Shown here in pieces: positions 12,478 through 61,324 of a DNA stretch of 64,000 nucleotides (its first letter is position 1; each line of letters opens with the position of its first letter). The stretch comes from an uncultured Chloroflexia bacterium (GTDB taxonomy: Bacteria; Chloroflexota; Dehalococcoidia; GIF9; AB-539-J10). The DNA is taken from the NCBI GenBank assembly GCA_963769975.1, contig CAVYNS010000003.1, forward strand, positions 384,434-448,433. The letters are read 5' to 3'. A program made the translations under genes and the position numbers. Under the pieces are notes generated by a model. It saw only the letters and a list, made by a program, of their open reading frames with translations. It was not told where the DNA came from and did not search any database.

Positions 12478-12609
12478 TTTCTACCTCCTCGTTTGCCGTC
12501 TAACATCTATTTTTTTATACCCATTTTCTATGCCCATTCTAGTTGCCCGCGGTCACATAGAGCCGATGCTGGGCAGCGTTTTCCACCTGGCATAGTCCGA
12601 GAATTGTGT

Positions 12610-22456: not shown

Positions 22457-23793
22457 GCTCGCACTTCTACCTTTTTATTGGTTTTGCGGGAGGCCTTGGT
22501 GAAAATCAACTTCAAAGGAACGCCGCGAAAACCAAAACCCTGGCGAAGCTTATTTTCCAAATAGCGTCGATAGGAAAAATGAACCAGCTTAGGATCGTTA
22601 ACCTGGAGAACAAAAGTCGCTGGCTGAGATTCATTTTGATAGGCTCGAGCAATGTGTAATCGCCTAGAACCTGTGCGGGGTGGGGGATAACTATTTACTG
22701 CCTGTGTGATTAACTCGTCAACTTCTGATTGAGGTATTCGCTTCTGTCTTTCCTGCCAGATTTCCCAGGCTTGAGGTAGAATCCTGTTTATCCCCTGTCC
22801 TAGTTTAGCAGAGATGTAAACAACAGGTGTGTAGGAAGCAAATCTAAGTCTTCGTTCCAAGCTTCCTTTAAATTCTTGTCTTTGTTCTCGGGGAACAAGG
22901 TCCCATTTATTAACCACGAGCATCATGCCCTTTCCAACCTCAATAATATAGCCCGCGATATGCATATCTTGGGCAGTAATAAATTCACCGGCATCAATTA
23001 ACAATAAGGCAACATCGCAGCGGTTGATAGCCTGAAGAGCGCGCAGCAGACTATAATAATCCACTCCCGCATCAACCCTTCCACGTCGTTTAATCCCGGC
23101 GGTGTCGACAAGTAAGATCTCCTTGTCATCCCACTTCATTATAGCATCGAGCGAGTCGCGAGTCGTCCCCGGAGACTCATGGACAATGGCTCTTTCATCA
23201 CCTAGCAAGGCATTCAACAAAGTTGACTTGCCGACATTAGGTCGCCCCACGATAGCTAATTTAGCTTCTGCCGACTCGGCAATACTGACAGGCTCTGGAG
23301 GCAAAGAAGCCAACACGGCATCCATTAGTTCATCTATCCCTCGATTATGGTGAGCACTGATAGCTATAGGCCCACCCATGCCCAAGCGATAGAAATCGGC
23401 CACCTGATTTGCTTTCTTGGCAGAATCTACCTTGTTTACTGTTAGTATGATTGGCTTATTGGCGGCACGCAGTACATCAGCAATTTCCTCATCGGCAGCA
23501 ATAACTCCGTCTTTGACATCTACCAAAAAGATGATGACATCTGCCTGAGCAATAGCTGCTTCGACCTGCTGTTTGACCTTTTGCTCCAAAGACCCTTGTG
23601 GGTCTGCCTGCCAGCCACCAGTGTCCACCACAGTTAACTCCCGCCCCTGCCAGGAAACAAAAGCAAAAACGCGGTCTCTGGTGGTTCCCGGTAAATCAGC
23701 AACTACAGCTATCTGCTTGCCCGCCAGGCGGTTAAGCAAGGTGGACTTGCCCACGTTGGTTCTCCCCACAATGGCTACAATAGACCTAGTCAT
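22453..23793 (-). CDS. der: ribosome-biogenesis GTPase Der (EngA), tandem GTPase domains
   Basis: 446 aa; two G-domains (GRTNVGKST, GRPNVGKST) and a KH-like C-terminus. Confidence 0.9.
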   Translation of the reverse strand: MTRSIVAIVGRTNVGKSTLLNRLAGKQIAVVADLPGTTRDRVFAFVSWQGRELTVVDTGGWQADPQGSLEQKVKQQVEAAIAQADVIIFLVDVKDGVIAADEEIADVLRAANKPIILTVNKVDSAKKANQVADFYRLGMGGPIAISAHHNRGIDELMDAVLASLPPEPVSIAESAEAKLAIVGRPNVGKSTLLNALLGDERAIVHESPGTTRDSLDAIMKWDDKEILLVDTAGIKRRGRVDAGVDYYSLLRALQAINRCDVALLLIDAGEFITAQDMHIAGYIIEVGKGMMLVVNKWDLVPREQRQEFKGSLERRLRFASYTPVVYISAKLGQGINRILPQAWEIWQERQKRIPQSEVDELITQAVNSYPPPRTGSRRLHIARAYQNESQPATFVLQVNDPKLVHFSYRRYLENKLRQGFGFRGVPLKLIFTKASRKTNKKVEVRA

Positions 23794-25529
23794 GGCCTCT
23801 TAGCTTCAAAACGCCTTGCAATCTCTTCAAATCCCTTCAAGGACTTAAGATCTTCCTCGGAAAGCCTTTCTTTAAATTCTTTCATTGCTTCCTTCACCAC
23901 CTGAGCCATCCCCTCTTTGTCCGCCTCGTTCTTCAATTTAACCAGCACCAAAGCTCTCTCCTCAGCTCCTTTCATGTCCCCCAATCTAATGCTCTCCAAG
24001 CCAAGCCTTTGAAGCGCCACGCCTTTGTTATACCAGGCCTTGGCATCATCTGGCTTTAGCTTTATCGCCTTATCAAAGCAAGCCAAGGCTTCTCTATGCT
24101 GCCCAAGCTCGGCAAGCACCGCGCCTTTGTTGCTCCAAGCCTCGGCATCATCTGGCTCTAGCTTTATCGCCTCATCATAGCAAGCAAGCGCTTTTTCAGG
24201 CTGCCCAAGCTCGCCAAGCGCCACGCCTTTGCCGACCCAGGGTTCGATAAGAGTAGGTTTCAGTTCCAAGGCTTGGTCGAAGCAAACAATTGCCTCGTCA
24301 ATTTCACCAAGTTCATCGCATAGTATGGCTCCCTTGTTGTTCCAAGCTTCGGCAAAATCTGGCTTCAGCCTTATCGCCTCGTCATAGCAAGCAAGCGCTT
24401 CCTTATACCGCTCAAGCTTGCCAAGCGCCATGCCCTTGCCATACCAAGACTGGCAATCACTGGGGTCTAGCTTTAATATTTCACCGAAGCAAGCCAGGGC
24501 TTCTTTAGGCTGCCCAAGCTCGCCAAGCGCCGCGCCCTTGCCATACCAGGCCTGGCAATCATTGGGGTCTAGCTTTAATGCTTCATCGAAACAAGCAAGG
24601 GCTTCTTTAGGCTGCCCAAGCTCGCCAAGCGTCACGCCTTTGTTATACCAGGCCTCAGCAAAATCTGGCTTTAGCTTTACCGCCTTATCAAAGCAAGCCA
24701 GGGCTTCTTTAGGCTGTCCAAGCTCATAAAGCGTCACGCCTTTGTTATACCAGACCCCAGCATTATCTGCCTTTAGCTTTATCGCCTTATCAAAGCAAGC
24801 AAGGGCTTCTTTAGGCTGCCCAAGCTCGGCAAGCACCGCGCCTTTGTTGTTCCAAGCCTCGGCATCATCTGGCTCTAACTTTATCGCCTCATCATAGCAA
24901 GCAAGGGCTTCTTTAGGCTGCCCAAGCTTGCCATGCGCCATGCCTTTGTTATACCAGGCCTCAGCAAAATCTGGCTTTAGCTTTACCGCCTCAGTAACGT
25001 AAACCAGAGCCTTCTCACGTTCCGCCTGCATCGACAGAGCAGCGCCGATGAGGTTAAGGCAAATGGCCTGAAGGGGCTTATCATCGAGCTTTTGAGCAAA
25101 TTCATAGGCTCGGCGATAAGCTTTCTCAGCTTCGGAAAAGGCATCGGAGTGGAAGCTCTCGTCTCCATAGGCAATAAAGGCGAAGGTGCTAAATCGCAGC
25201 TTGTCTTCTTTAGACAAGGCTTTAACCTTAGGAGCCTTCAGAAGCCTCTGGGCATCTTCACTCCGCTTTATCTTTCTGCTCCGCACCTGCGGGTCTTCAA
25301 ATTCCTTCTTGTCCGCCTTGCTCAAGAGTTCTCTAGTTTGAGGGAGCTTCAGCAAAGTTTCCACGCCATAATCAAGAAGCTCCTTAGTCTTTTCGACAGA
25401 TGGCGCTCTTACTCTTATGCCTTTATCGCTCACCTCTATCTCCGCCTCACCAACCCCTAAAGCGCTCTTTACTTTTCCTAAAACACCTTTGGCAGCTTTT
25501 TTGGCTGCTTCCATTCCCAATTCTTCCAT
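23790..25529 (-). CDS. tetratricopeptide-repeat protein (about 13 near-identical TPR units)
   Basis: 579 aa; repeated EALACFDKAIKLKPDFAEAWYNKG units, also repeated at the DNA level. Confidence 0.8.
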   Translation of the reverse strand: MEELGMEAAKKAAKGVLGKVKSALGVGEAEIEVSDKGIRVRAPSVEKTKELLDYGVETLLKLPQTRELLSKADKKEFEDPQVRSRKIKRSEDAQRLLKAPKVKALSKEDKLRFSTFAFIAYGDESFHSDAFSEAEKAYRRAYEFAQKLDDKPLQAICLNLIGAALSMQAEREKALVYVTEAVKLKPDFAEAWYNKGMAHGKLGQPKEALACYDEAIKLEPDDAEAWNNKGAVLAELGQPKEALACFDKAIKLKADNAGVWYNKGVTLYELGQPKEALACFDKAVKLKPDFAEAWYNKGVTLGELGQPKEALACFDEALKLDPNDCQAWYGKGAALGELGQPKEALACFGEILKLDPSDCQSWYGKGMALGKLERYKEALACYDEAIRLKPDFAEAWNNKGAILCDELGEIDEAIVCFDQALELKPTLIEPWVGKGVALGELGQPEKALACYDEAIKLEPDDAEAWSNKGAVLAELGQHREALACFDKAIKLKPDDAKAWYNKGVALQRLGLESIRLGDMKGAEERALVLVKLKNEADKEGMAQVVKEAMKEFKERLSEEDLKSLKGFEEIARRFEAKRP

Positions 25530-33161: not shown

Positions 33162-33467
33162 TTGGAGGGGCAGATGAAAGCAATAATAACGAGTATTATG
33201 GTAGCCATTGTACTAGCTTCAATCTTTTCCTTGCCGGCTCTAGCCCAAGAAAACAGTACCATCACCATCACTATGACAGGAGCCAATGAAATTTCCATTA
33301 GCCTGGATAAGACACAATGGCCTCTCGGGAACGTGGCTTCAAACACAGAATATGAGACAAGCCCGCCCATAGAGTGGTGCACACTGACCGTACAGGGCAA
33401 TTGTAATGTAAATACCTTTATTGTAGGGGATGATGCTAAATGGGATTGCGCTCACACAATAACATAG
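33162..33467 (+). CDS. small secreted protein (signal peptide); C-terminus DCAHTIT
   Basis: 101 aa; hydrophobic N-terminus ending ALAQE; its stop codon lies inside repeat copy A. Confidence 0.5.
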   Translation: MEGQMKAIITSIMVAIVLASIFSLPALAQENSTITITMTGANEISISLDKTQWPLGNVASNTEYETSPPIEWCTLTVQGNCNVNTFIVGDDAKWDCAHTIT

Positions 33468-33512
33468 AAATGCTACCATTCAGGGTGTGTGTTTGAGGTG
33501 ACAAGACAGGCG
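33444..33512. repeat. mosaic intergenic repeat family, copy A
   Basis: acaataacatagaa ... ttcagggtgtgtgtttgaggtgacaagacagg; shared with 35521-35660, 36378-36515 and 56585-56760. Confidence 0.6.
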
Positions 33513-33550: not shown

Positions 33551-34972
33551 TTAAACAGTGACCTTTATCAGCCAGACATCATAGTCCCCGTACGAAGATG
33601 TGGAACCGGCAATGATGTATCCTCCATCTGAGGTTTGCTGGACTGAGTAGCCATAGTCGTCACCTGAACCGCCAAAGGTCTTGTTCCACGCCAAATTTCC
33701 TGAAGAATCGGCCTTTATCAGCCAGACATCCCCACCGCTATACCAGGACAACGCCGTGTAACCGGCAATGATGTAGCCTCCGTCCGAGGTTTGCTGGACT
33801 GAGTGGCCATAGTCACAAGATGAACCGCCAAAGGTCTGGTTCCACGCCAAATTTCCTGAAGAATCGGTCTTTATCAGCCAGACATCACTACAGCCAGCCC
33901 CGTAGGAATATGTGTTAGCGATAATGATGTATCCTCCGTCCGAGGTCTGCTGCACGGAGTCGCCTTCGTCATCCAGGGAACCGCCAAAGGTCTTGTTCCA
34001 CGTTTCATTTCCTGCAGAATCTGTCTTTATCAGCCAGACATCACGACTGCCAGCCCCGTAGGAATCTGTGCAACCGGCAATGATGTATCCTGCATCCGAG
34101 GTTTGCTGAACCGAGTACCCCTCGTCATAACCTGAACCGCCAAAGGTCTTGTTCCACGCCAGATTTCCTGAAGAATCCGTCTTCATCAGCCAGACGTCCC
34201 TATCGCCAGCCCCGTAGTATTGTGTGGAACCGGCAATGATGTATCCTCCATCCGAGGTTTGCTGAACTGAGTACCCCTCGTCATAACCTGAAGCGCCAAA
34301 GGTCTTGTTCCACGCCAGATTTCCTGAAGAATCCGTCTTCATCAGCCAGACATCTAAAACGCCACCCTCGTATGAATATGTGTAACCGATAATGATGTAT
34401 CCTCCGTCCGAGGTTTGCTGGACCGAGTAGCCATAGTCATAATCTGAACCGCCAAAGGTCTTGTTCCACGCCAAATTTCCTGAAGAATCTGTCTTTATCA
34501 GCCAGACATCAACATTGCCAGCGCCGTAGGAATCCGTGTAACCGGCGATGATGTATCCTCCGTCCGAGGTTTGCTGGACTGAGTAGCCCCGGTCAGTACC
34601 TGAACCGCCAAAGGTCTTGCTCCATGCTACTTCAGGATTATAATAGGTAGTAGCCCTGAAATTAGCGGCGATGTTCTTATCCGAGTCCATGGTAATGGCA
34701 ATACTGGATGTGTTGCCCGACGCACTACCAGTCCAGTGGTCAAAAGTATAACCACTAGCAGGGCTGGCTGTTAGTGTCACCTGTGCACCAGATTCATATT
34801 GGCCACCTGAAGGGGAGACCGAGCCTGCTCCTATGGGGTCAACGACTGTGGTAAGCTTGTAAGTCTCGGCAGAAGCTGGTCCCTCCCATGGTTTGAAAAC
34901 AAATAAGACTATCGCTACGATAATAGCTATGGTGCAACCTACGATGATTCCTGCCAGCTTTTTCTTACTCAT
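33551..34972 (-). CDS. membrane-anchored protein with an InlB-B-repeat-like domain and ~8 beta-propeller (SBBP-like) repeats
   Basis: 473 aa; N-terminal TM helix, [12 protein letters not shown] Ig-like segment, then ~48-aa tandem units ([28 protein letters not shown]). Confidence 0.7.
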
Positions 34973-35520: not shown

Positions 35521-35660
35521 GGGATTGTGGGGACACAATAACATAGAACTTTTGCCGTTCAGCGTGCGCGCTTAATGTCGCATAATCACAATACATCACT
35601 CCCAGTTCGTGTAATGAAATAACAAAACAGGCAATTGTTACCCGAACTGCACGAAATATC
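35521..35660. repeat. mosaic intergenic repeat family, copy B (includes a degenerate gene 3' end ...DCGDTIT*)
   Basis: gattgtggggacacaataacatagaacttttgccgttcag ... aataacaaaacaggcaattgttacccgaactg. Confidence 0.6.
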
Positions 35661-36125: not shown

Positions 36126-36377
36126 TTCTACCTCCTTATTCCAATGTTCGCAGCAAAATAATCCTAGGAACTCAAGTGTTGCTAAACAAGGTAAGTCTCT
36201 ATACGAAAATTAGCCGAATCTGTAAATTCGTAACACATACATTTGACTACGCACTTTGACATTAGTCTCTAAGGGCTACTTCTTATTTAAAATATTCTTA
36301 TAGAAATTACTATACAACTATTTAAGAGAAATTGTCAATAGTTTGTTCGTGGTTTCCAAAACATACTATGGAGTTAA

Positions 36378-36515
36378 GGAGTCACAAAACGCTGCTTTGT
36401 GCAGTGCGCCACAATCGGGATTGTGGGGACACAATAGCATAGAATTTTTGCCGTTCAGGGTGTGTGTTTGAGGTAACAAAACAGACTATTGTTGCCCGAG
36501 TTGAACAATACGTCA
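36378..36515. repeat. mosaic intergenic repeat family, copy C (with a 24-codon ORF ending ...DCGDTIA*)
   Basis: gtcacaaaacgctgctttgtgcag ... gattgtggggacacaatagcatagaatttttgccgttcagggtgtgtgtttgaggtaacaaaacagactattgttgcccgagttg. Confidence 0.6.
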
Positions 36516-39349: not shown

Positions 39350-40249
39350 ATGGCAAGTAGCAACAGACTCAAGTGTTTAGTTACGAGCGACGAGGTAGCC
39401 TATATGAGCATATCGTCCAAATCATCATTAGAACTGGACGCAGCGAAGAGTCTCATGTGGTGGATAACACATGAGACTCTTGTTCCAATTGACAAGCCAG
39501 ATTGCAGCCAACCATCGAGGCCGGGAGGGAACCCTGATTTTATCTTCCAGGACTCGAGAAAGCGTAAGTATGTATTGGAAGTGACTCGGCTGCTAACTTC
39601 AAAGTTACGCAACCTCGAAAATACGGTAGCTGCCCAAGTTTGTGCTCCAGTAGAGTACCAAATTCCTGGTACCTACGGGTTGCATATCCACTTGACCGAT
39701 CCTCTTGGGCGGGGCAAGATCGCCCCCGAGGTTTTGAAGCAAACAGCGGAGGAAATATCTAGAATATTAAAAGATGGCACTTTGCAGGATACTCAACAAT
39801 TGAGCGCAGGGTTTATCCTTTGGAAGGCAAGGAGCGAAGGCAGTAAGCTAGTACCTTGGATTACCTCGCCGGAACTACCATTTGACCTAACTGATGCCCA
39901 TCCCATCGCCAAGGAACTGCGAAGTGTATTTGAGAAATTGATAGAGGAAGGTGATTTGAAGTTTCGAGGCTATGACCCGTACAGGCTCCTGCTTATTAAC
40001 ACTTCACAATCAGGATTGGACTTAAAATTCCATGCCGGAAGATTCAAGGATGGCAAAGGTATCTTGCTCACCTGGATGGATACTTTATGCCAGCGGATCC
40101 TCAACATCGATGCCATCTTCTTAGAACCCGGTATCAATGTCCGGTCAGCAGGAGGCAAAGTAATGGCAGGGCATAAATACGTTGAGAGCAAGTCTGGTCA
40201 CTACCTTGAGCTCTGGCATCGTAGTAGCGTTCCACCGCTTCTTATCTAG
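39350..40249 (+). CDS. hypothetical protein (299 aa)
   Basis: ORF only. Confidence 0.45.
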   Translation: MASSNRLKCLVTSDEVAYMSISSKSSLELDAAKSLMWWITHETLVPIDKPDCSQPSRPGGNPDFIFQDSRKRKYVLEVTRLLTSKLRNLENTVAAQVCAPVEYQIPGTYGLHIHLTDPLGRGKIAPEVLKQTAEEISRILKDGTLQDTQQLSAGFILWKARSEGSKLVPWITSPELPFDLTDAHPIAKELRSVFEKLIEEGDLKFRGYDPYRLLLINTSQSGLDLKFHAGRFKDGKGILLTWMDTLCQRILNIDAIFLEPGINVRSAGGKVMAGHKYVESKSGHYLELWHRSSVPPLLI

Positions 40250-40497
40250 CTGAATACTTTGGGACATCTAACAAATACTCATTATGTTGCCTTAACCCTT
40301 GCGGGGTATTGAACGAAATAGCGTTTTGTGACTGCTTAACCCTATGGCATCTTCTAAGCAAGGGTAGCAATAGCCCTGTGTTGTCAAAAATTCCTGCCAA
40401 GAGGGGAAAGCACGTGCTTTCCGAAAGCTGCTCCAGAGAAGCATGCTTTTTAGCTTAATGAAGCGCTTAAAAAGCAGCTGCTAATTTTATATTAGAT

Positions 40498-40875
40498 GAG
40501 CAGCTCGGGGTGAGCAGCTCGAAAGCAGCTTTTTTGAAGCCCTGATTACGAAGGGTCTCTTGGGGCAACTAGTCAAAACCCAGAAGCAGCTTCTGAATTT
40601 ACGTTTGGCCGAGCAGCTCGGAGCGCTGCTCGGAGCAGCTTTTTTGACCCCCTGATTACGAAGGCGTTATCTTAAGGCAACTAATCAAGGTTCGGAAGCA
40701 GCTCAAGATTTTACGTTGGCCGAGCAGCTCCGAGCAGCTGCTCAAGCAGCTTTTTTGAAGCCCTGATTACGAAGGCGCTATCTTAAGGCAACTAATCAAG
40801 GTCCGGAAGCAGCTCAAGATTTTACGTTGGCCGAGCAGCTCCGAGCAGCTCAAAAGCAGCTTTTTCTTGAGGAGA
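40498..40875. repeat. non-coding tandem repeat, 111-bp unit, ~3.4 copies
   Basis: Units start at 40498, 40611, 40722 and 40833; each contains gagcagctc(g/c)g ... agcagcttttttga(a/c)gccctgattacgaagg ... aaggcaactaatcaagg. Confidence 0.8.
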
Positions 40876-40985
40876 TTCTCGAGATGGGGAAAGTAATTTG
40901 CTTTCCACCGTGCGAAAATCATTTACTATTCGGCGAAAACTGCGCTCCATAGTAAGCATTCCCTAGAGCATCCAAACGTGCTATA

Positions 40986-41516
40986 ATGAGGCTGCGGGTA
41001 AAAGCTAGGGCGTGGGCTCAAGCACACGCGGAGGGTAACATGGCCCAAGTATCAGTTACAATCGATGCTGTTAGACGTGGCACACTGCGGGATGTGTGGA
41101 CGCTACTACTAAAAGAGAAGGTAGCAGAAGGATACCCGTCAATTGGACTCTATTTTTTGCCAATCTGGATAAGCCCATCCCAGGCAGATATTATAATCGG
41201 TGAGCTCCTGCAGCGACCCGACAAGAGCACGACTCCTGATATCTTCCTGGCCAGTATCAACGCGATTGAGTCCAAGATTGAATGCGCCACAATTTATCTG
41301 GAGGGTGAGACGTTTTACGCCAGGCTGCAACTTTTTCATCACGATGAGGTTCGCGAAGTAAAATGTCCAATAGCCGTAGCGGTAGCCCTGGCGTCCAGGG
41401 CAGGAGCATCCACTTTGGTTGAAGAAGCAACATGGGACAAAGCTGCCCTGACGATAAATCGGGACTGGACATTGGGTGTTGGTAATGCTGTCCCAGCGAC
41501 CGGCAAAACTGGGTGA
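40986..41516 (+). CDS. DUF151-family bifunctional nuclease-like protein
   Basis: 176 aa; pattern LPIWIS ... EAxxI ... RP ... D ... ETFYARLQL ... VKCPIAVAVALA matches the BFN/DUF151 fold. Confidence 0.55.
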   Translation: MRLRVKARAWAQAHAEGNMAQVSVTIDAVRRGTLRDVWTLLLKEKVAEGYPSIGLYFLPIWISPSQADIIIGELLQRPDKSTTPDIFLASINAIESKIECATIYLEGETFYARLQLFHHDEVREVKCPIAVAVALASRAGASTLVEEATWDKAALTINRDWTLGVGNAVPATGKTG

Positions 41517-41722
41517 CGCTAGCGCTTGACCCTATATCGGCCCTACCAAAACAACCTCGGTGGAGACGGCTGCTCGGGAGACAGGGGTAAGCCTCGGACT
41601 GTCTTATCGCTAACGCCTTGCCACTTTTGTTGCGTAATGGTGCTTCAATCGGCACGGGAAGGTTAGTATTTCCGCTTTCAACCGTTATTCCTTTACCCTA
41701 GATAATTCAACAAAAGAATCAA

Positions 41723-41947
41723 TCAGGGTGCGCTTTTCCCATTGATTACGTCCCTCAGCTTTAGCCCGTTGGCCTTCAGGACCCCAAAGATATATGCCGG
41801 ACTGCAACCCAGCTCGGTGGCCGCCGCCACCACGTTACGGTGTGCCTTTAACGACTCACAAACGTTTTTGAATGGTATATTAAGCCGTCTGCGTCCTAAA
41901 CCATTCACCGTTACCATTCCCCCGCAGTGCGGACAAGTAACTTTCAC
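41723..41947 (-). CDS. small zinc-ribbon / HTH DNA-binding protein
   Basis: 74 aa; CPHCGG zinc ribbon followed by a helix-turn-helix-like segment. Confidence 0.45.
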   Translation of the reverse strand: MKVTCPHCGGMVTVNGLGRRRLNIPFKNVCESLKAHRNVVAAATELGCSPAYIFGVLKANGLKLRDVINGKSAP

Positions 41948-41974
41948 CCCGCTTTACTCTCCAAATTTTTTCTC

Positions 41975-42155
41975 TGACACTTTCGTGCCTACTGCGCATG
42001 GCTTTACGCACTGACACTTCACTGACAGTACTCTTGACACTTTACTGACACTTTCTGACACTTTCAAAGTGTCAGTGCGTGGGCTGACAATTGTCAGAGA
42101 ATTTTTTAGCTTCAATCCGTGCGTAAGTGTCAAAGTGTCAGAACTGTCAGTGTCT
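41975..42155. repeat. iteron array of the 9-mer TGACACTTT (at least 5 direct and 3 inverted copies)
   Basis: Direct copies at 41975, 42012, 42035, 42046 and 42055; inverted AAAGTGTCA copies at 42066, 42130 and 42139; a TGACAATTGTCA palindrome at 42086. Confidence 0.7.
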
Positions 42156-42165
42156 CTATACTTTT

Positions 42166-43416
42166 TCAAACCGCCTCGTATCTCCTGACTTGCCGTCCTC
42201 TATCCGTTTTCTGGTACGAGTTCTTGATTAGTCCAATCTTCGCAAGTGGCGCTACCAGGCTTTCGAGTTCCTTCGCTGATATTGAGAGCCGCCGGTAAAC
42301 TTCCCGCTCCGGGACCGACCCGCCCTCAGCCCGCAAAAATTCTAGTAATTTAATCTCTTGAGCCTTGCCACTTGACGTTCCGAAGCTGGCGAATACTTCA
42401 GTTACGCTCGCTTCTAGATAGTTCCCCACTGCAATCGCCGCTTCTAGGTGGTCTACTGATATACTCTCTGACATCGTGTCTGCCGCATAGAGTAAAGCTA
42501 TCTTCCAAATGAAGTCCTGAATCCTGACAATAAGCGTGGGTATCAATCCCGGTTGCTGACAGCGCCGGTAATATTCGTGGTAGTATTCCTCAAACAGTGT
42601 GCTTGCCTCGTCTGAGATGGTTATCTCACCGTTGGGCACGTCCTCAGCCCAGCTACGAATCTGATTCAACTCCCGAACTAGCTCATTGCGCTTGTCCAGG
42701 TCAACCTTTGGCGGATTCGGCATGGGGTCTTTTGGCAAGCCATAAAAGTAACACCAGCGATTTGCGAAGCCGCCGTATATGTCCCTCTCGGTGAGCGCCT
42801 TTTGTAGCCAATCCTGTGTCGTGCCCGCCATTATGGAGAGGAAAGGCTCTTTAGCTGGCTTCACGTCTTTTTGATGCACTGGCGGATTTAACAGGTCTGG
42901 AGAATCGTACAACTCGTTGAGCGCTGGGATAATGTTACCTAGCGAATCTTGTTTGGCCTTTGCCAGTAAAGATAGCAGCTCGCCAAGCTGTATGAGCCTG
43001 ACTTTCCGCTCTCCGGCCAGTTCATCCAGCAAGCCTTCATAGCTTCTGATTCCCCTAAGTGTTTTGAATGGCGGACTTGGGTCATCCTCTGAGTACGCGT
43101 GAAGCATGTCCAATACGCTGCGGCCCCTTGACCATGTGGTGTCTTTGCGTGTTAGCCCGCTTCTACCTACAAGGCAGTTAAAGAAGTTAGGGAATAGCCT
43201 TGTTGCGTGATACGTAAAAAGGCGCCTGCCGATGGTACACCCAAAGACTTGAAGAAACGTGGCATAGTGGAAGGCATCTGCCGCCTCGGTAGTATTTGCT
43301 ACCATATCTCGATAGTCTTTCAATAAGCCTCGCCATGCGATAGCGGGTATTTCCAGACTGGCCGGAGTAGTAATCGGCTTTGAGAGTGCCTTTTCCGTAA
43401 TTATTATCTCTGGCAT
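42166..43416 (-). CDS. primase-associated protein (DUF3987-like C-terminal domain family)
   Basis: 416 aa with no P-loop; overlaps the upstream primase gene by 13 nt; arrangement typical of integrative-element replication modules. Confidence 0.4.
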   Translation of the reverse strand: MPEIIITEKALSKPITTPASLEIPAIAWRGLLKDYRDMVANTTEAADAFHYATFLQVFGCTIGRRLFTYHATRLFPNFFNCLVGRSGLTRKDTTWSRGRSVLDMLHAYSEDDPSPPFKTLRGIRSYEGLLDELAGERKVRLIQLGELLSLLAKAKQDSLGNIIPALNELYDSPDLLNPPVHQKDVKPAKEPFLSIMAGTTQDWLQKALTERDIYGGFANRWCYFYGLPKDPMPNPPKVDLDKRNELVRELNQIRSWAEDVPNGEITISDEASTLFEEYYHEYYRRCQQPGLIPTLIVRIQDFIWKIALLYAADTMSESISVDHLEAAIAVGNYLEASVTEVFASFGTSSGKAQEIKLLEFLRAEGGSVPEREVYRRLSISAKELESLVAPLAKIGLIKNSYQKTDRGRQVRRYEAV

Positions 43417-44369
43417 AGCTGCCCCCCTGTCGCTAGTAAATCGTCCAACCCCTTAAACTCTGCGTTCCAATCAGCCTCAAAGGTGCGTATTCTACGCTTG
43501 ATTAGGCAAGCAATTAAGGCGTTCTTATGGAGATTGACAACAGGATAAGATAGCTTGTCCATGTCAAAGGCAACAATCGCCCTTGCTGGTGCGAGTTCAC
43601 GGACTATCGGTATAATGCCCGGCCAATTGCCAACACCAGGCACGGCCAAAACAACACGCTCCAGCCTCAGAGCGGCAATATCGGCTTTAATCGGCCCTTC
43701 GGTAATCCACATTTCGCTCTTAGTGGACACTGGCCCTGCTACATGTACCGGCGCTCCTGGAGAACAGCCGGCGAAGTAGCCGCGAGAGCTTAACCACCTA
43801 TAGCGGCTACCGTTCTCTGTGTTGTCACACCGGATTTGCAATCCTATAATACGGCGCTTAGTGTCCCTTACGGGTATCAGAATCCCGGCTGGGCCTGAGA
43901 GCCTAACTTCCTCAAACCCAAGCCAGAAGCCCGGGACGCCGATTAGCTTGAATCCCTTTGCTTTGAGACTTTGCACTACGCCGCGCCTCCCGTTTACCGG
44001 GAATGATTTGTACTCTAGTCTGAGAATCTCATCGTCCGTTAGTCCCCGGCGTTGTAAGTTTGTGCGGTGGGTATCTGATAGTGACAGTTCTACGAGCAGG
44101 GCGTGGTAAGCTCTGTCAAGCACGTCTGGCGCCGCTTTTGGTATTTGCTTTGCATCAGGTCTAGGCTTAGGTAGCGGTAATGACTTCATGGTGTCCAGTT
44201 TGTGTATCCAACCTGCACCTTTCTTGCCTGCGGGTTTATCACTCTCAATGCGAGCGCAGATAGCGGCTTCCCCATCCTGTGATATAAGACACCAATCAGG
44301 CTTACCGCATACCGGGCACAGGTTATGCTTGGTAACACGAATCCACTTGTTAGCCGTTGCCGTGGTCAT
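43404..44369 (-). CDS. zinc-ribbon + TOPRIM primase (P4-type/DnaG-like)
   Basis: 321 aa; CPVCGKPDWC ... AAIC zinc ribbon, then a TOPRIM with conserved E (ITEGP) and DxD (AFDMD). Confidence 0.6.
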   Translation of the reverse strand: MTTATANKWIRVTKHNLCPVCGKPDWCLISQDGEAAICARIESDKPAGKKGAGWIHKLDTMKSLPLPKPRPDAKQIPKAAPDVLDRAYHALLVELSLSDTHRTNLQRRGLTDDEILRLEYKSFPVNGRRGVVQSLKAKGFKLIGVPGFWLGFEEVRLSGPAGILIPVRDTKRRIIGLQIRCDNTENGSRYRWLSSRGYFAGCSPGAPVHVAGPVSTKSEMWITEGPIKADIAALRLERVVLAVPGVGNWPGIIPIVRELAPARAIVAFDMDKLSYPVVNLHKNALIACLIKRRIRTFEADWNAEFKGLDDLLATGGQLCQR

Positions 44370-44597
44370 TTCTTTCCCTCACTTTCAGCCTTCAATTCAC
44401 GCTGGCACTCAGCGATTAGACGTGAAAAGAACTTCCGCCACTGTTGCCACGCCAGCGGTGATGCTGGCGGCCCTGGCCGAATGCTCATAATGACCTTAAC
44501 TTCGGCCTTATCTCTTGTCTTCGTTGGCTGCTTCGCCATCATCTTTTCTTTTGAGAGGGCGTATAGTCAGTTCACCGTCTGCAATCATCTTGAAATC

Positions 44598-44804
44598 CTA
44601 TCTCTCCGAGTGAGGGATAACTTTTAGCAAATGGTCGGCAGTAATTGGAACCTTCTGTCCTGGTTTGATGTTGTGGGCATCAACGAACTCCCTGGGGAGA
44701 TTCAGGTAGTAGGAACCATTGATGCAAATCACCCGCCGATTCTCCGTAATGGGGTCATTCACTTTGTGTTTGACTCTGTTTTTCCTTAGGTTTACTTTTG
44801 ACAT
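44598..44804 (-). CDS. AbrB/MazE/SpoVT-family transcriptional regulator
   Basis: 68 aa; swapped-hairpin beta-barrel motif (VICINGSYYLNLPREFVD). Confidence 0.6.
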   Translation of the reverse strand: MSKVNLRKNRVKHKVNDPITENRRVICINGSYYLNLPREFVDAHNIKPGQKVPITADHLLKVIPHSER

Positions 44805-45593: not shown

Positions 45594-48317
45594 GTGGTTG
45601 ACTACAGCATAGAGGTTTCAGTTACCGAGGGTACGACAAATACTGAGCGTGGAAACTTGTTAGTAGAGTTGATGCGCGATGTATTTGATGCGACTAACCA
45701 TACCAGTGGTCCGTCTATTAGGGTCACTGGTATGGAGATAGATACTACTGCTACTCATAATGTCACCGGCGAGAAGATATATGCCGAGTGCAAGGCTTAT
45801 AGAGAACCTATACCAGCAGATACTATTTCAAAACTATTGGGCAACGTTTTTCTTAAGAACGTAGACCAGGGATGGCTGGTAACTACATCTAAGCTTTCTA
45901 AGGACGCCGAGGGATCAAAGGAAGAGTGGGAGAAGAAACCTCCAGAAGAACGTCGTCGATTACAGGTCTACAATCCTCCTAGACTGCTAACTCTGTTAAT
46001 AGCTTCAAACCGTATCTTTGATCCAGCCAAGATAACAGCTACCTCAGGAACGGAGCAGGGTAACTGGTATTTTCTTCTGACTAATCTTGGTCGTTACTGG
46101 GCAAAGTTGGTAGTAGAGGCAGGCATACCGAGTAGAGTCATCGTCTATAATGCACAGACAGGCGTGTTAGTAAACGATGCGGAGCTTTTGAAAAAACTCA
46201 AACTGACTGACACTAGCCTCCGCGATTTCAATTGGCCAATTCCTTCTCCCAATGGTTCAGGGGTGGGAGAGTTGCTTGCCTACTTATCGGAAACGGTTGT
46301 TGATGTCGCGACTGGTGATACTTGGGCGGATTATCGTCCTGCCAGACCTCAAGACTTTGTGGGTCGGCATGATCTTCAAGATACTATGCGAGATTTATTT
46401 CTAGGTATTAGGAATAGAAGTACTAACACTCGTTTATTCTCAATAACTGGACCGTCGGGATGGGGTAAAAGTTCTTTAATTGCGAAACTACGGGACCGCT
46501 GTAGTAATAAGGCAAATCGTAAGAAATTTTACATGACTGCATTTGATATGAGAGCCGCCAAATCGTCAAACTATGTTTCCGCTGCTCTCCTAAGGTGTTT
46601 CTCGTCAGCGATCCAACGAAATTTTATTCTTCGGCCTGTTATGCCACTGCAAGTGGGAGCTCCCACAACGCCTCTTGAAAGTGAATCCTTACAAGATTGT
46701 TTACAACAGCTTAAAGATAAGAACAAAGTACTCATCTTAGTTTTTGATCAGTTTGAGGAGGTACTTACTAAACCCGAATTGAGGCAGCTATTTGATAGAC
46801 TTCGGTTACTCGCTTTGTCAGTGGATGCACAAAAAGAGAATCTTGTCCTTGGCTTTGCTTGGAAAAGCGATGCTTTTCTTCCACAAGATCACCCCGCGTA
46901 CTATCTTTGGCATCAACTCAAGGACAGACGTCTTGATCTGGCTGTGCCACGTTTTGGTTCAAAGGACGTCTCGCAAGCCCTAACACACTTCCAAACCGAA
47001 TTGGGACAACGCTTGAATCCTGTTTTACGCTCACAATTGGTACAGCATTGTCAAGGTTTTCCTTGGCTACTCAAAAAGCTGTGTATTCATGTTCTTAACC
47101 TCGTAAGACGTGATCTAAGTCAGCTGCAGGTGCTAGAGCGAGGACTAGATGTACGAGGACTGTTCGAAGCAGATTTAAGTGGGCTTTCCAGTAAGGAAAC
47201 ACTGTGCCTTAAAGAAATCGCGCGGTTGGCACCTGTTGAATGGGTACAAATTGTCGAACAATTCGGGAATGATACATACACTTCACTACTAGGTAAACTG
47301 TTGATAGTTCGTAGTGGCGACAGGCTGAACCCATATTGGGATATTTTCGGAGACTATCTGCGCACCAATGAAATCCCACATGTGCCTGTGTCTTTTCTGC
47401 CAGGAACTGAAATCCGAACTTTAGCAAGAGCAGCTGTTATTACTGTTATGAACAGGCCAGCAGGAGTCACATTAGAAAAACTGAGCACATCGCTGTCTAT
47501 AAATAGTAGGTCAGCAGGTAATGTTGTTCGAGATTTACAGATGTTTAGTCTTGCAGAGAGAAAAGGTGATCATATCGTTTCAACGATAGCTATCAAGGAG
47601 ACAAGAGATGCAGTCGCTGAGATCGCAAGACTAATCGCTCGCGCCTTAAATAACCACACCTTTACAATTATACTTCGTAGGAATGTAGCAAAGGGTTCAG
47701 AGATTACTGAACAGGATTTGCTTGGGTTCTTTAATGAGGCATTCCGGTATGCGTCACTCCGTGATGTCACAAAGAGAATGTACACACTCCGACTCGCCAA
47801 ATACTTGACGGCAACCCGCTTTCTCGAGCGTGTTCCTAGCGTATGGATACTCATTGATGAATTGACGGGACAGTTGATATTAATGCCAAGAGTTAGAGGT
47901 GCAGGTGAGTTTCTAGGAGATGCTCCTCCTGGAAGAGTTTTGGAGGTGCTGCAGAAGCTGTCGGAGTCTCCTGTGCCGAGAGCAGTCTTGAATAAGTCTC
48001 GTCTGAGGAACGCGACAGCATGTGCAATAATGCTGGAGCTCGCAAGCACACGTGATGGCATCGTTTACAGGCTAGAAGATACTAAGGACATGGAGGCTTC
48101 ACTAGTTGGAGCAGTAACCAACACTAGGTCTTTTAAGATAGTTTCAGAGCTTATCTGCAAATCTCCCAACATATCAGCAACGGAAATCGGTAAAACTCTG
48201 TCTGCCCACCTTGATTTGCCTTGGAGTGAGGCATCAAACCTTCGCCGTGGTAACGCGCTTCGTAGGTGGGTTCGGTGGTCGCAAAGTCAGACTTCCACAC
48301 GATCGGAGCCTGTATAG
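45594..48317 (+). CDS. STAND-type P-loop NTPase with an N-terminal Mrr-like PD-(D/E)xK nuclease domain (Avs-like antiviral STAND candidate)
   Basis: 907 aa; N-terminus GMEID ... EKIYAECKAY (D ... ExK); Walker A GPSGWGKSS; Walker B LILVFDQFEE; ~450-aa C-terminal helical region. Confidence 0.75.
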   Translation: MVDYSIEVSVTEGTTNTERGNLLVELMRDVFDATNHTSGPSIRVTGMEIDTTATHNVTGEKIYAECKAYREPIPADTISKLLGNVFLKNVDQGWLVTTSKLSKDAEGSKEEWEKKPPEERRRLQVYNPPRLLTLLIASNRIFDPAKITATSGTEQGNWYFLLTNLGRYWAKLVVEAGIPSRVIVYNAQTGVLVNDAELLKKLKLTDTSLRDFNWPIPSPNGSGVGELLAYLSETVVDVATGDTWADYRPARPQDFVGRHDLQDTMRDLFLGIRNRSTNTRLFSITGPSGWGKSSLIAKLRDRCSNKANRKKFYMTAFDMRAAKSSNYVSAALLRCFSSAIQRNFILRPVMPLQVGAPTTPLESESLQDCLQQLKDKNKVLILVFDQFEEVLTKPELRQLFDRLRLLALSVDAQKENLVLGFAWKSDAFLPQDHPAYYLWHQLKDRRLDLAVPRFGSKDVSQALTHFQTELGQRLNPVLRSQLVQHCQGFPWLLKKLCIHVLNLVRRDLSQLQVLERGLDVRGLFEADLSGLSSKETLCLKEIARLAPVEWVQIVEQFGNDTYTSLLGKLLIVRSGDRLNPYWDIFGDYLRTNEIPHVPVSFLPGTEIRTLARAAVITVMNRPAGVTLEKLSTSLSINSRSAGNVVRDLQMFSLAERKGDHIVSTIAIKETRDAVAEIARLIARALNNHTFTIILRRNVAKGSEITEQDLLGFFNEAFRYASLRDVTKRMYTLRLAKYLTATRFLERVPSVWILIDELTGQLILMPRVRGAGEFLGDAPPGRVLEVLQKLSESPVPRAVLNKSRLRNATACAIMLELASTRDGIVYRLEDTKDMEASLVGAVTNTRSFKIVSELICKSPNISATEIGKTLSAHLDLPWSEASNLRRGNALRRWVRWSQSQTSTRSEPV

Positions 48318-49431: not shown

Positions 49432-50517
49432 CTACAGGTCAAACTCTGTCCAGACCGCTCCGTGATCCGACGCTGATGCGGTGATGCCGTTGTCCTGCAC
49501 TTCCGGCCAAGCAATTACTTCCCCGTTGGAGTACTTTGCAACATCAAAAATACCTCTGCGTTCGACTCCGGCCTGTCTGCACGCATTCTGGAGCGGTTCC
49601 GAGACAAGAATGAAATCAAGCTGCTGATTCACATCGTAATGGTATGTCCATCTGTCCTCAGGTTTTGCGATTTTCAGCGCCAGTACATCTTTTAGCTCTC
49701 TCACATTCATCAGCGGCGATAGTGACTTGCTGTCAGGCGCCGCGTTGAAATCTCCGAGTACCACGACTTTGTCTCTCGTCAGGTCATGATTCCGCTCTCT
49801 AATAATGTCACCCACCCGTTGTGCTTGACGCAGTCTTTTGGCATCGTTTTGCTCCTGTGAGCCGTATCCTTGACTCTTGAAATGATTGACGAAAAGGTAC
49901 AGGAAATCGTTGTCTGGGAGCTTGATTGTGACTTCAAGACAGTCGCGAGAGAAAATGCGTGAACGTCCAACTTTCTCAAACATGTGGGTCCTGATATCGC
50001 ACATCTCGAAGCGAGAAAGGAGCGAGACATCAATTCCACGGGGATCAAATGCGTCAATCAGCATACTGTACGGATACCTCTTTCTAATGAATTGAGAATT
50101 GAATATATCAAGGGTGGGTTTGCTCTCTACCTCAATCACGCTGATGATGTCCGCGCTCACAGAGTTGATGACTTTCGCAGTGTTCTTTCTTGTGATTTCG
50201 GTGAAGTCGTCGGCTTTGAATGCGATGAAGCCACCCCAGTCATCCCTGCCTTTCGCTTTTACGCCGACGACGTTGAACTTCCGGTCACGCTTGAATAGTT
50301 TCTGGCGCACTTCATTTATGTCGATGAAATCCTTTAGTTCTTCATAGAGACCAAGAATCTTCTTGCCATCGTAGGCCTTCTTCTCCAACTCCACTTGTAG
50401 TTGGTCAACTTTGGCGAGTATTTCATCCCCATCTCTCCGCTCTTCAAAATTAAAGACTTTTGCGCGGCGAAATAAGTTCTCCGCATTGAACGTCGCAATC
50501 TTTAGAGTGTCACGCAT
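49432..50517 (-). CDS. endonuclease/exonuclease/phosphatase (EEP) family protein
   Basis: 361 aa; N-terminus KIATFNAENLF; motifs VLGDFNA and SDHGAVWTEF. Confidence 0.75.
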   Translation of the reverse strand: MRDTLKIATFNAENLFRRAKVFNFEERRDGDEILAKVDQLQVELEKKAYDGKKILGLYEELKDFIDINEVRQKLFKRDRKFNVVGVKAKGRDDWGGFIAFKADDFTEITRKNTAKVINSVSADIISVIEVESKPTLDIFNSQFIRKRYPYSMLIDAFDPRGIDVSLLSRFEMCDIRTHMFEKVGRSRIFSRDCLEVTIKLPDNDFLYLFVNHFKSQGYGSQEQNDAKRLRQAQRVGDIIRERNHDLTRDKVVVLGDFNAAPDSKSLSPLMNVRELKDVLALKIAKPEDRWTYHYDVNQQLDFILVSEPLQNACRQAGVERRGIFDVAKYSNGEVIAWPEVQDNGITASASDHGAVWTEFDL

Positions 50518-50636: not shown

Positions 50637-51569
50637 CTAGATATTGTTCGCGTTTCCTTGGAATATTTGCTTTCTACAAATCAAGGTGACGTCTCGGACT
50701 AGGCCTAAAGTTCTGGGAATTCGCTCTATTATAGTTGGTATTGCCTGAACGATTCCGAGTCCTTGAGTATAATCTTGTGGCTCCAGAAAACCTCCTGGAT
50801 ATCGTGTATAACTCTCGTGAGGGAAGGTTAACACTCCAAAGATATAACACTGACCTGCTGCCTGACCAAATTTCACCGAGGAATAGGTAACAATTGATTC
50901 TTTGTACTCAGGTAGGTATTCTGCAAAAACGGTTTTGACTTCATTTTCCTTCTGCTCTAATAATGGATGTGTTGTGAAGAGTGCGTCAGCAACTCTGATC
51001 AGTCCCTCTATGCCGAGTACACGGGGGGACGAGTTCATGGGCAGCTTGGCTAGCCGCTGTTGATCACTGTTAACTAGTTTCTTCACTTGGGTGATGGCTG
51101 TCTTGTAGTCTCGGTTATCAAGTGAGTTCAGTATACTCATCATCTCGTTGCCGGGCTTTTCTTCAATGATCTTCAATAGAGGTTGTGGAGTTCGATGAGT
51201 TGTGAGCAGTTCCTTAATGGTTACATCACCAATCGATAAGCAGAAAGCTTTCATGGCCTTTTCAATTGCTTGCTGGATGTGATAAACGCTCAGAGCAAGT
51301 TCCCCATGTTGAAAGAGTAAATTTGCCGCCCTATGATCTGCTTCTCCAGCGCCTAGGTATTTATCAGCAATGTCCAAAGAAGACGAATCTCGCCTTATCA
51401 CGACATGCTTGAGGGCACGCTTTACGAGTACTTCTGTTCGGAGCGAGTCTATCTGGTTAGCTTTCGGCATCAACTTCTTGATACCCGGCTTAACCCTAAG
51501 CCATAGCGTCTCGATTAGTTCATTTCCATTTTCGTTTGCCATTTGGTCGCCCGGAATGAATAACATCAT
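50637..51569 (-). CDS. hypothetical protein (310 aa)
   Basis: ORF only; follows the EEP gene on the same strand. Confidence 0.45.
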   Translation of the reverse strand: MMLFIPGDQMANENGNELIETLWLRVKPGIKKLMPKANQIDSLRTEVLVKRALKHVVIRRDSSSLDIADKYLGAGEADHRAANLLFQHGELALSVYHIQQAIEKAMKAFCLSIGDVTIKELLTTHRTPQPLLKIIEEKPGNEMMSILNSLDNRDYKTAITQVKKLVNSDQQRLAKLPMNSSPRVLGIEGLIRVADALFTTHPLLEQKENEVKTVFAEYLPEYKESIVTYSSVKFGQAAGQCYIFGVLTFPHESYTRYPGGFLEPQDYTQGLGIVQAIPTIIERIPRTLGLVRDVTLICRKQIFQGNANNI

Positions 51570-60292: not shown

Positions 60293-61324
60293 TCACCTAG
60301 CCTCAATGGCTGGGAGCAAATCCTCTAGACCTCGTTGGTAGTTTGTCCTGAAATCTGCGTACCGCTTATCCGCAATGAGAGGTGGAATGTCACAATCAGC
60401 AATCAGAACTGGCAGGACTACTACATTCCTTGTTTGTAGTTCACGCATTAAGCCAGCACTCAGCTCTTTCTCAACCCAAGACGATTTTACTGAATTAGGC
60501 GATAGAATGAGTATGAGGTAGTCGTTCCTATTAATACTTTCGTTGATCTTCTTCGCAATAGAGTCGCCAACCTTTATTTCCCAACGATCCCACCATACTT
60601 GCTTCCCTGAGTTATTCAGGTCGTTCACGAGGCGTTCTACAAACTCAGCATCCTTACTTGAATAGCTGATGAAAGCGCTGGGTATTGTCTTGTCCTTTTT
60701 TAACACTGGCTTACGATTCTTCCTATAGGCAGACAGTTCCGCTTCTACCACAGGAATGATTTCAGCTGGCATGGTCCAATCTGGGTATTTATTACTGCCG
60801 GTTTTAAAGATCAGTTTTAGAGTGCGGAATCTTGGTAGCAAATAGGATGGGACAAATTCATAACCGAGCGCTGATTCAATGGCATCAAGAAGCTCGAAAT
60901 ATTCACTTCTTCCGCCTTTATCGATAATTCCTCGCAAGACACCGTAGGCTTTGTCTCCCCAGCGACTGAGCGCCTTTTGCACGTTCGCACGTACAGCATC
61001 CCAGGAACTTTCGACCTTCAGTCGACCACTTTCATCGCAAGTGTAATAATTTCCCTGGAATCCACCGAGGTCAAGGCCATACTTTGGCGGTTTCTTCATT
61101 ATGAGTTTGACCAGCGTTTCGTCAGAAATCACTTCTGCAATAGCTAAGGCCGCCTTTAACCTAGAATCATCCCCATATCCAATGTCCCAGTAATTCGCGA
61201 ATTTCTCAAAATAAGGAATACGCAGGATCTTACCTACATTATAGAGGTCCTCCAGCCAATAAAGGCGCATCAATAATAAGGCTCTTTCTTTTGTCCTTGC
61301 ATCCGTCAGTTCGTTAGATGGCAT
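60293..61324 (-). CDS. TIR-domain protein (unknown ~200-aa N-terminal domain + C-terminal TIR)
   Basis: 343 aa; the C-terminus FISYSSKDAEFVERLVNDL ... WWDRWEIKVGDSI ... ILSPNSVKSSWVEKEL matches TIR core motifs, including the catalytic-region Glu. Confidence 0.75.
   Translation of the reverse strand: MPSNELTDARTKERALLLMRLYWLEDLYNVGKILRIPYFEKFANYWDIGYGDDSRLKAALAIAEVISDETLVKLIMKKPPKYGLDLGGFQGNYYTCDESGRLKVESSWDAVRANVQKALSRWGDKAYGVLRGIIDKGGRSEYFELLDAIESALGYEFVPSYLLPRFRTLKLIFKTGSNKYPDWTMPAEIIPVVEAELSAYRKNRKPVLKKDKTIPSAFISYSSKDAEFVERLVNDLNNSGKQVWWDRWEIKVGDSIAKKINESINRNDYLILILSPNSVKSSWVEKELSAGLMRELQTRNVVVLPVLIADCDIPPLIADKRYADFRTNYQRGLEDLLPAIEAR

Follow-up and report, generated by a model that had tools for sequence, protein, structure and literature searches.

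A 111-bp tandem array of conserved AGCWGCT heptamers upstream of a DUF151 gene in uncultured Dehalococcoidia, possibly a docking array for a DNA-binding protein

The window analysed here is a stretch of 64,000 nucleotides from the genome of an uncultured Chloroflexia bacterium (GTDB class Dehalococcoidia; assembly GCA_963769975.1, contig CAVYNS010000003.1). It contains a non-coding tandem repeat with a unit of 111 bp, which lies upstream of a gene for a DUF151/BFN-fold protein of 158 amino acids (called BFN below). Related loci used for comparison are denoted by L and a number. Tandem Repeats Finder (TRF) places the repeat at 40512-40865, with a period of 111, 3.2 copies and 85% matches, and a degenerate "unit 0" carries the periodicity back to ~40426. 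The unit starts given in a preliminary description of this DNA (40498, 40611, 40722 and 40833) are correct; its figure of more than 85% identity is slightly generous for unit 1, as the measured pairwise identities are 82.6-94.5%. The features of the region are listed below, where "site" denotes a copy of the heptamer AGCAGCT and L064 and L070 are two related loci.

40318-40350, + strand: "element X" (AGCGTTTTGTGACTGCTTAAC...), the left edge of the block common with L064 (window-L064 homology starts at 40318)
40405-40422: perfect 18-bp palindrome GGAAAGCACGTGCTTTCC, left of the array, with one change in L064
40426-40497, + strand: degenerate unit 0, with sites at 40426 (inverted) and 40473/40476 (AGCAGCTGCT), then the A/T-rich AATTTTATATTAGAT
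40498-40610, + strand: unit 1, 113 bp, with three grouped sites at 40499/40513/40524, then a T6 tract; solo site at 40585
40611-40721, + strand: unit 2, 111 bp, with sites at 40612 and 40634 and between them a degenerate inverted one (AGCGCTGCT), then a T6 tract; solo site at 40697
40722-40832, + strand: unit 3, 111 bp, with sites at 40723, 40733/40736 and 40745, then a T6 tract; solo site at 40808
40833-40865, + strand: terminal partial unit, with a triplet at 40834/40844/40855 and a T5 tract
40888-40906: inverted repeat GGAAAG-N7-CTTTCC, right of the array, conserved in L064 and L070
40979-40987, + strand: extended -10 element TGcTATAAT, predicted promoter of BFN, ~120 bp 3' of the last heptamer
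41040-41516, + strand: DUF151/BFN-fold gene, 158 amino acids, ATG at 41040, GGAGGG Shine-Dalgarno sequence at 41030-41035

A full unit opens with GAGCAGCTC, followed by the variable second site and by an AGCAGCT that runs into T5-6 and GA. The second part comprises CCyTGATTACGAAG, a variable stretch, GGCAACTAATCAA, the solo AGCAGCT and ATTTTACGTTGG; unit 0 corresponds to the solo-site and ATTTTACGTTGG portion of the full units. Measured from start to start, the solo site and site 1 are 26 bp apart, neighbouring sites of a triplet 10-14 bp, and site 3 and the solo site 61-63 bp; the pattern (26, 10-11, 10-11 and 61-63 bp) is kept across the window, L064 and L070. The heptamer is palindromic save for its central base, and many copies also have symmetric flanks (CAGAAGCaGCTTCTG, CCGAGCaGCTCGG, GAGCAGCTGCTC and AAAAGCaGCTTTT). 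The two inverted repeats that bracket the array (40405-40422 and 40888-40906) are related to each other. The array holds 18 heptamers in all, and a T5-6 tract comes after the third site of each triplet.

The heptamers are strongly concentrated in the array. The window has 28 copies of AGCAGCT, where shuffled sequences have 12.5 +/- 3.8 (none of 100 shuffles attains 28); of the 28 copies, 18 fall within 40426-40861, 15 of them on the + strand. The density of AGCWGCT is 18, 17 and 19 per ~430 bp in the arrays of the window, L064 and L070, respectively, and 0.16-0.18 per kb elsewhere; for the window array (18 in ~440 bp) this is ~230 times the background. Two independent metagenome assemblies (L002 and L003) are identical to the base over the 806-bp intergenic region, so the array is not an assembly artefact; it is real and stable within the source population. 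In the same contigs, where the 111-bp array is unchanged, L003 lacks one unit of a coding 156-bp repeat that lies a few kb away.

Matches to a hidden Markov model of the unit and clusters of heptamers are confined to BFN loci (in the window, the 64 kb covered of the source genome, and in ~0.65 Mb of related DNA). A dispersed repeat of the repetitive extragenic palindrome or miniature inverted-repeat transposable element type was rejected, as no scattered copies are present in the same DNA. The proposed search for the repeat in plasmids and phages of related taxa came back empty: 40250-41000 has no blastn match in plasmid and phage collections, and the exact repeat pattern has none in the viral contigs of IMG/VR. 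A degenerate triple-heptamer pattern gave 120 matches in the viral contigs, with 9- or 12-bp periods; these are unrelated simple repeats, probably coding.

The region is non-coding, as first described, with stops in all six frames and no open reading frame (ORF) of 60 amino acids or more (the longest overlapping one has 51). The alternative of a frameshifted gene, and with it that of a protein-coding repeat, falls with the absence of an open frame and with indels across relatives that are not multiples of three: the period in L064 is 108-109 bp and the middle segment measures 13, 14 or 17 nt. The TGATTACG block, which contains a TGA, is kept in 9 of 10 aligned units, and unit 1 of L064 has lost one base of the block. 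A mini-ORF of 16 codons, initiated by TTG and open in several units, was also rejected; it is broken in unit 2 of L070 and by the 13-, 14- and 17-nt lengths. Nor does the array resemble clustered regularly interspaced short palindromic repeats (CRISPR), because the 111-bp unit is repeated over its full length, at 83-95% identity, with no unique spacers in between.

The assignment of the downstream gene to DUF151 is upheld by the Pfam profile BFN_dom (E=2.5e-11) and by fold: the AlphaFold model (pLDDT, the predicted local distance difference test score, 78) matches TM0160 (1VJL/1SJ5) with a TM score of 0.70-0.78 (E=3e-8). A sequence search of the PDB with BFN gave no match, whereas the fold search did. 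The product starting from the ATG at 41040 (158 amino acids) is the form on record in public assemblies. There are ten detectable close homologues in all, with 48-96% identity; none was found in viral contigs, and neither PADLOC nor NCBIfam assigns BFN or its neighbours to a known defence system. The sequence TGcTATAAT is the putative promoter element of BFN, and TATAAT (TATGAT in L070) is found at the same place in all seven BFN lineages with an intergenic upstream region.

The same repeat is present upstream of BFN in L064 (BFN 96% identical in amino acids; period 108-109 bp, 4.1 copies) and in L070, L071 and L072 (72%; period 111, 3.3 copies). The window, L064 and L070 have array, TGcTATAAT element and BFN in collinear order. 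The homology with L064 spans 40318-41518 only, ending two bases past the BFN stop, and that with L070 spans 40497-41475. The flanks are different: ABC-transporter genes on one side of L064 and an element with AAA_25, HTH_17 and two integrases on the other, and a giant surface protein with unrelated small genes around L070. BFN is the only gene common to the three array-bearing loci. From the limits of homology and the unrelated flanks it follows that array, promoter and BFN form a 1.2-kb block (40318-41518) that is inherited together. Judged by these comparisons, the block occupies different genomic surroundings in different Dehalococcoidia (two further lineages). This defines a portable block of array, promoter and DUF151 gene in uncultured Dehalococcoidia, one of the few genomic clues to the role of bacterial DUF151 proteins.

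Selection on the heptamers was assessed in an alignment of 10 units from three lineages (window, L064 and L070). In the three well-aligned heptamers 20 of the 21 columns are invariant, versus 33 of 72 elsewhere (Fisher p=3e-5), and the sole variable heptamer column is the central base (A/T), with the palindrome preserved. Identity between lineages is 97-100% for the three site classes, 80% for the other columns and 42% for the middle segment. The middle site of the triplet flips its orientation and spelling between units and is nearly always present, which fits a symmetric protein site and not an RNA stem. Over the collinear part of the window and L070, identity is 71% in the non-site array, 89% in the promoter-proximal 174 bp and 82.5% in BFN; the four-fold degenerate sites of BFN are 88% identical, above the non-site array positions (71%). 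Thus the heptamers are preserved while the sequence between them changes at roughly the neutral rate, and by this comparison the heptamer sites are under purifying selection.

The reading that we favour, with a probability of a little under one half (about 0.45), is that the array upstream of the BFN promoter provides multivalent docking for a sequence-specific DNA-binding protein. Among the functions first proposed, that of a regulator-binding array fits best with the conservation of the sites, their geometry and the linkage to BFN: a short symmetric motif conserved above the neutral rate, a fixed position relative to the predicted promoter, and co-inheritance. Beyond these observations we infer binding by a protein, the character of that protein and an effect on transcription. 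The array would be bound by a symmetric, probably dimeric protein reading the quasi-palindromic AGCWGCT (extended RAGCAGCTY). With the triplet sites about one helical turn apart (10-14 bp), three dimers could sit on one face of the DNA; the fourth, solo site would follow about six turns further on, with conserved T-tracts and other blocks in between. Tandem duplication would have multiplied this unit 3-4 times, to give 17-19 sites 120-560 bp upstream of the -10 element, on which the bound protein could form a higher-order complex. Such a complex would control the BFN promoter from a distance, by activation, by silencing (spreading or looping) or by titration. Action at a distance is favoured over simple operator occlusion because the array ends ~120 bp upstream of the -10 element. 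Should such a protein exist, GAGCAGCTC offers a concrete DNA bait for finding it.

Nothing homologous to the array is known, although its kind, a variable-copy tandem array of short protein-binding sites (predicted ones here) beside mobile DNA, is familiar. The omega repressor of plasmid pSM19035, a small dimeric protein, reads contiguous arrays of heptad operators that overlap its promoters. As in the present array, these comprise many 7-bp units in either orientation upstream of promoters, and they are read co-operatively; here, in contrast, the sites are 10-14 bp apart, a 111-bp super-repeat groups them as triplets, and the last of them is ~120 bp upstream of the -10 element. The nearest documented functional analogue, and a precedent for the favoured reading, is DR1 of the IncU plasmid RA3 (PMC9455977): this composite tandem repeat, upstream of repA and distinct from oriV, acts by titrating the DNA-binding protein RepB. 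Like the present array, DR1 is non-coding and a few hundred bp long (arranged as (r3r1)3r3, with a ~98-bp unit), and it lies directly upstream of a gene; both have repeated protein-binding motifs (predicted in our case) and are separate from the actual origin. They have no sequence similarity; RepB is known and encoded beside DR1 on a plasmid, whereas the present array has no linked initiator or regulator, lies in a chromosomal context and adjoins a gene of the DUF151 nuclease fold.

Several observations weigh against such a docking array, or at least against its serving BFN. No DNA-binding gene is co-inherited with the array in the three array-bearing loci, and the distance of ~120 bp between the nearest heptamer and the -10 element makes simple operator occlusion unlikely. 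Other blocks of the unit are invariant as well and are not explained by the heptamers (TTACGAAG, GGCAAC, TCAA, TTTA and ATTTTACG), and the conservation is drawn from three lineages only, among whose units concerted evolution or gene conversion can inflate it. In L070 the heptamers are intact while BFN diverges equally at all codon positions and its 3' end is inverted. Identity between the window and L070 at codon positions 1, 2 and 3 of BFN is 0.834, 0.808 and 0.801, with no excess at the third position (0.987, 0.981 and 0.956 versus L064). The inverted segment of ~110 bp (window 41470-41582 versus L070 10430-10560) includes the last ~20 codons, so that BFN of L070 (10001-10456) has 151 amino acids and a different C-terminus. 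This fast evolution points to relaxed or diversifying selection on BFN, and the array may serve something other than BFN.

Four lineages, moreover, have BFN without the array but with the promoter kept: L065 and L076 (80-82% identity), L066 (66%) and L073 (63%). The array is thus dispensable for the BFN gene. Homology to the window by blastn begins at 40912 in L065 (~70 bp 5' of the -10 element) and at 40951 in L066 (~30 bp), and the same TATAAT element is legible in L076 and L073; in L074 and L078 BFN directly follows another gene. By this distribution the array is an accessory of the block, gained, lost and resized. Variation or absence in close relatives with no functional consequence, named beforehand as a refutation, is found in part: the number of copies differs (3.2, 4.1 and 3.3), and the relatives with 80-82% BFN identity have no array.

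It is unlikely that a mobile element instead uses the array in cis for one of its DNA transactions (as an iteron origin or for copy control, as a centromere-like site of partition, or in packaging or recombination). The architecture is iteron-like, with short sites phased by the helical turn and T-tracts, and the copy number is variable, as in centromere and incompatibility arrays; DR1 of RA3 is itself an incompatibility array. Phage P4, a primase-helicase replicon, has in its crr two direct repeats of ~120 bp with internal iterons. The BFN blocks also often lie beside mobile modules: the window has a primase-helicase module, L064 the AAA_25/HTH_17/integrase element, L066 and L078 serine recombinases, and L074 a Mu-like transposase. 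Opposed to this, the three array-bearing loci have no gene in common except BFN, no ParA, ParB or Rep gene is present among the genes scanned, and the surroundings show neither an evident AT-rich unwinding region (the GC content of 40001-41000 is 0.47, and the A/T of the array is limited to T5-6 tracts) nor a cluster of DnaA boxes.

The comparison of the primase-helicase module bears on an origin, which was among the first proposals. Its DUF3987 helicase-like protein (42166-43416) has >200 homologues, and those with a named source come from metagenome-assembled genomes of Chloroflexota/Dehalococcoidia. Sixty loci encoding DUF3987 relatives (L004-L063) were compared. They define a conserved module of a DUF3854 primase-like gene, the DUF3987 gene, a short repeat cluster and a gene for a Zn-ribbon/HTH protein of 74 amino acids (Zn74), and their nucleotide homology to the window is confined to 41734-44434. 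The 111-bp repeat is absent from all ~50 loci with primase-helicase relatives (60-85% amino acid identity; blastn, nhmmer and TRF), as is the BFN gene from the helicase-relative loci compared. The module has a repeat cluster of its own: in 44 of the 44 loci with >=250 bp of sequence 3' of the helicase gene (that is, at least 250 bp), a hexamer is repeated 5-13 times within 300 bp, with a lineage-specific spelling (CTGACA, GTGACA, ATGACA, CTACCA, CAGTAA, CCGACA or CGCTCA). In the window this cluster is as follows.

41974-42150: ~12 CTGACA(CTT) sites, bounded by the Zn74 start (41947) and the helicase stop (42166)

The CTGACA cluster has a direct set (41974-42062) and an inverted set (42067-42150) with an A/T-rich stretch between. 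In the origins of phage-inducible chromosomal islands and Staphylococcus aureus pathogenicity islands, an AT-rich core is flanked by two sets of iterons, directly 3' of pri-rep (PMC6092414). It is the CTGACA cluster 3' of the helicase gene that resembles them and not the 111-bp array, which lies at a distance of 1.3 kb with two genes in between, is not inherited together with the module and lacks the layout of two sets around an AT core. If an iteron origin exists, the cluster at 41974-42150 is the better candidate for that of the primase-helicase module, and it better fits the description of sites beside an AT-rich region; it could also be the operator of the Zn74 gene, whose start adjoins it. 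The long repeat is naturally misread as the primase-helicase origin, whereas the shorter cluster is the conserved origin-like feature.

The proposal of a partition site fares no better, as no partition genes were found nearby: Pfam scans gave, among the ORFs scanned between 25.5 and 61.3 kb, no ParA, ParB, ParM or ParR, and none was called in L064 and L070. F sopC, a plasmid centromere, consists of 12 units of 43 bp. R1 parC, another such centromere, has 2 x 5 iterons of 11 bp (PMC2241845). The array is like these centromeres in its tandem units, with a short, partly palindromic site, spacing close to the helical turn (17-19 heptamers per array) and variable copy number. It differs in having no adjacent parA/parM or parB/parR, in its longer unit with four sites and other conserved blocks, and in its inheritance with a nuclease-like gene in chromosomal islands; a partition centromere of the parS, parC or sopC type was rejected because no partition genes are present among the ORFs scanned.

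The neighbouring small proteins were the binders first suggested. The Zn-ribbon/HTH protein (41723-41947) and the AbrB-like ORF (44598-44804) are both absent from L064 and L070; Zn74 belongs to the helicase module and the AbrB-like ORF lies upstream of the primase. Their binding of the array is, on this distribution, unlikely. The AbrB/SpoVT-like ORF (68 amino acids, - strand), identified by eye, is found in two related loci (L043 and L007). Another ORF upstream of the primase, of 58 amino acids (44366-44542), is more widely conserved and is also present in L070.

A functionally neutral minisatellite, in which a 111-bp segment upstream of BFN was duplicated by slippage or unequal recombination with the heptamers as passengers, would account for the variable copies (3.2, 4.1 and 3.3), for close BFN relatives that have no array and no visible damage to the gene, and for non-site positions that diverge at or above the synonymous rate. 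It would not account for heptamers that are near-invariant in three lineages differing by ~20-29% at the other array positions, nor for the retained spacing and the extra sites that L070 has added at the 5' end of its array (9432-9483) rather than lost, and we hold it to be improbable. If no binder exists, the array is a variable minisatellite useful as a strain marker.

It is quite unlikely that array and gene make up a self-contained cis-trans pair, in which BFN itself recognises, and perhaps nicks, AGCWGCT in autoregulation or DNA processing. In three unrelated contexts no gene other than BFN is co-inherited with the array. In addition, the array-less lineages keep a few palindromic sites flanked by A-tracts, of other spelling, upstream of the same promoter (AAAAGCACTAC/GTAGTGCTTT in L065 and L076, AAAAGTACT in L066 and L073), which is what a co-evolving specificity of BFN would produce; these sites are, however, few and not statistically compelling. 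The protein has a single DUF151 domain and no recognisable sequence-specific DNA-binding module, and the sites of L070 are conserved while its BFN looks relaxed or damaged. The family is described as a non-specific DNase/RNase (PMC7249048). If BFN did bind its own array sequence-specifically, this would be a first defined DNA target for the poorly understood DUF151 family, with a role at the borders of mobile elements in Dehalococcoidia, and related BFN genes would carry co-evolving arrays or single sites of other spelling.

Tandem small-RNA genes or terminators, with a promoter, a hairpin and a U-tract in each unit as in the NsiR1-type arrays of cyanobacteria (which are likewise tandem repeats of similar length upstream of a gene), are highly improbable: a terminator-like hairpin followed by T6 in units 2 and 3 (40625-40639 and 40736-40751), a weak promoter-like site TTGACC-18-TATCTT in unit 2 (at 40644) and folding better than shuffles (z = -4.2) are set against a hairpin in only 1 of 4 units and no promoter-like site in L064 (where the flipped site 3 of unit 3 destroys the stem), neither feature in L070, a weak RNAalifold consensus (-10.3 kcal/mol, with an unfavourable covariation term of +0.43 and a main helix that never varies), equally good folding of the opposite strand (z = -4.7), as expected of palindromic DNA, and no Rfam match at the gathering threshold or E<=1. 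The promoter and terminator per unit are thus not conserved, unlike in the NsiR1 arrays, and there is no covariation. A sigma-54 or extracytoplasmic-function-type promoter per unit was also rejected, neither pattern being conserved in the aligned units as judged by eye.

Other repeats and junctions are found around the BFN blocks. The 3' flanks of BFN repeatedly adjoin different mobile elements. In lineages other than L070, homology breaks near a common CCCTACCAA motif just 3' of BFN, which may be a recombination site. In L074, four 22-bp repeats (TTTCGGAGGAAAAAGGCCACCC, 2910-2999) lie directly 3' of the BFN homologue and 5' of a Mu-like transposase and an IstB-like ATPase, and are probably a transposon end. 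Element X (~35 bp, AGCGTTTTGTGACTsCTyAAC) has an inverted copy ~4 kb away in the window (36363-36393, - strand) and is found also at L064 9178 and 3' of BFN in L065 (6596-6634); it may be a cassette-junction or recombination sequence. A second repeat family of ~110 bp, with AGCACT/AGCGCT/AGTACT cores and a AATTTCATATTACG block, lies by the BFN genes of three other lineages (L064 10612-10853, 2.2 copies; L070 ~10640-10970; L066 ~4440-4510), is common to them with z=10-14, and is absent from the window. In L064 it stands 3' of BFN, beside a gene of 80 amino acids and the AAA_25 gene, and may be the origin of the AAA_25 element. We do not claim its homology to the 111-bp unit, in spite of a similar arrangement: as a diverged paralogue it was rejected by local alignment against shuffles (z=0), and nhmmer gives no connection.

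The wider island was searched for landmarks of integration. A tRNA scan of the window found none, a search for att-type direct repeats bounding an element gave short dispersed elements only, and there is no integrase among the ORFs scanned between 25.5 and 61.3 kb. The window encodes a protein with Mrr_cat and a STAND NTPase (45594-48317, 907 amino acids), an EEP-family nuclease (49432-50517), a HEPN protein (50637-51569) and a TIR-domain protein (60293-61324), which gives the island the look of a defence island. A dispersed intergenic element of ~75 bp (GGGATTGTGGGGACACAATAACATAGAA...) with the palindrome ATTGTG-N4-CACAAT lies between its small minus-strand genes and looks like a common promoter or operator. 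Its copies are:

33441-33509, 35521-35594 and 36412-36484, in the window: ~75-bp ATTGTG-N4-CACAAT element
12449-12526 and 16677-16784, in L070: the same element

The 156-bp coding repeat (52 amino acids per unit, 33586-34624) belongs to a Flg_new_2 / InlB B-repeat protein (gene 33551-34972, - strand), which has 421 amino acids in L003 versus 473 in the window. Another coding repeat, of 102 bp (34 amino acids) in 9.6 copies, occupies 24012-24993 within an ORF at 23790-25529 (- strand) and is probably TPR-like.

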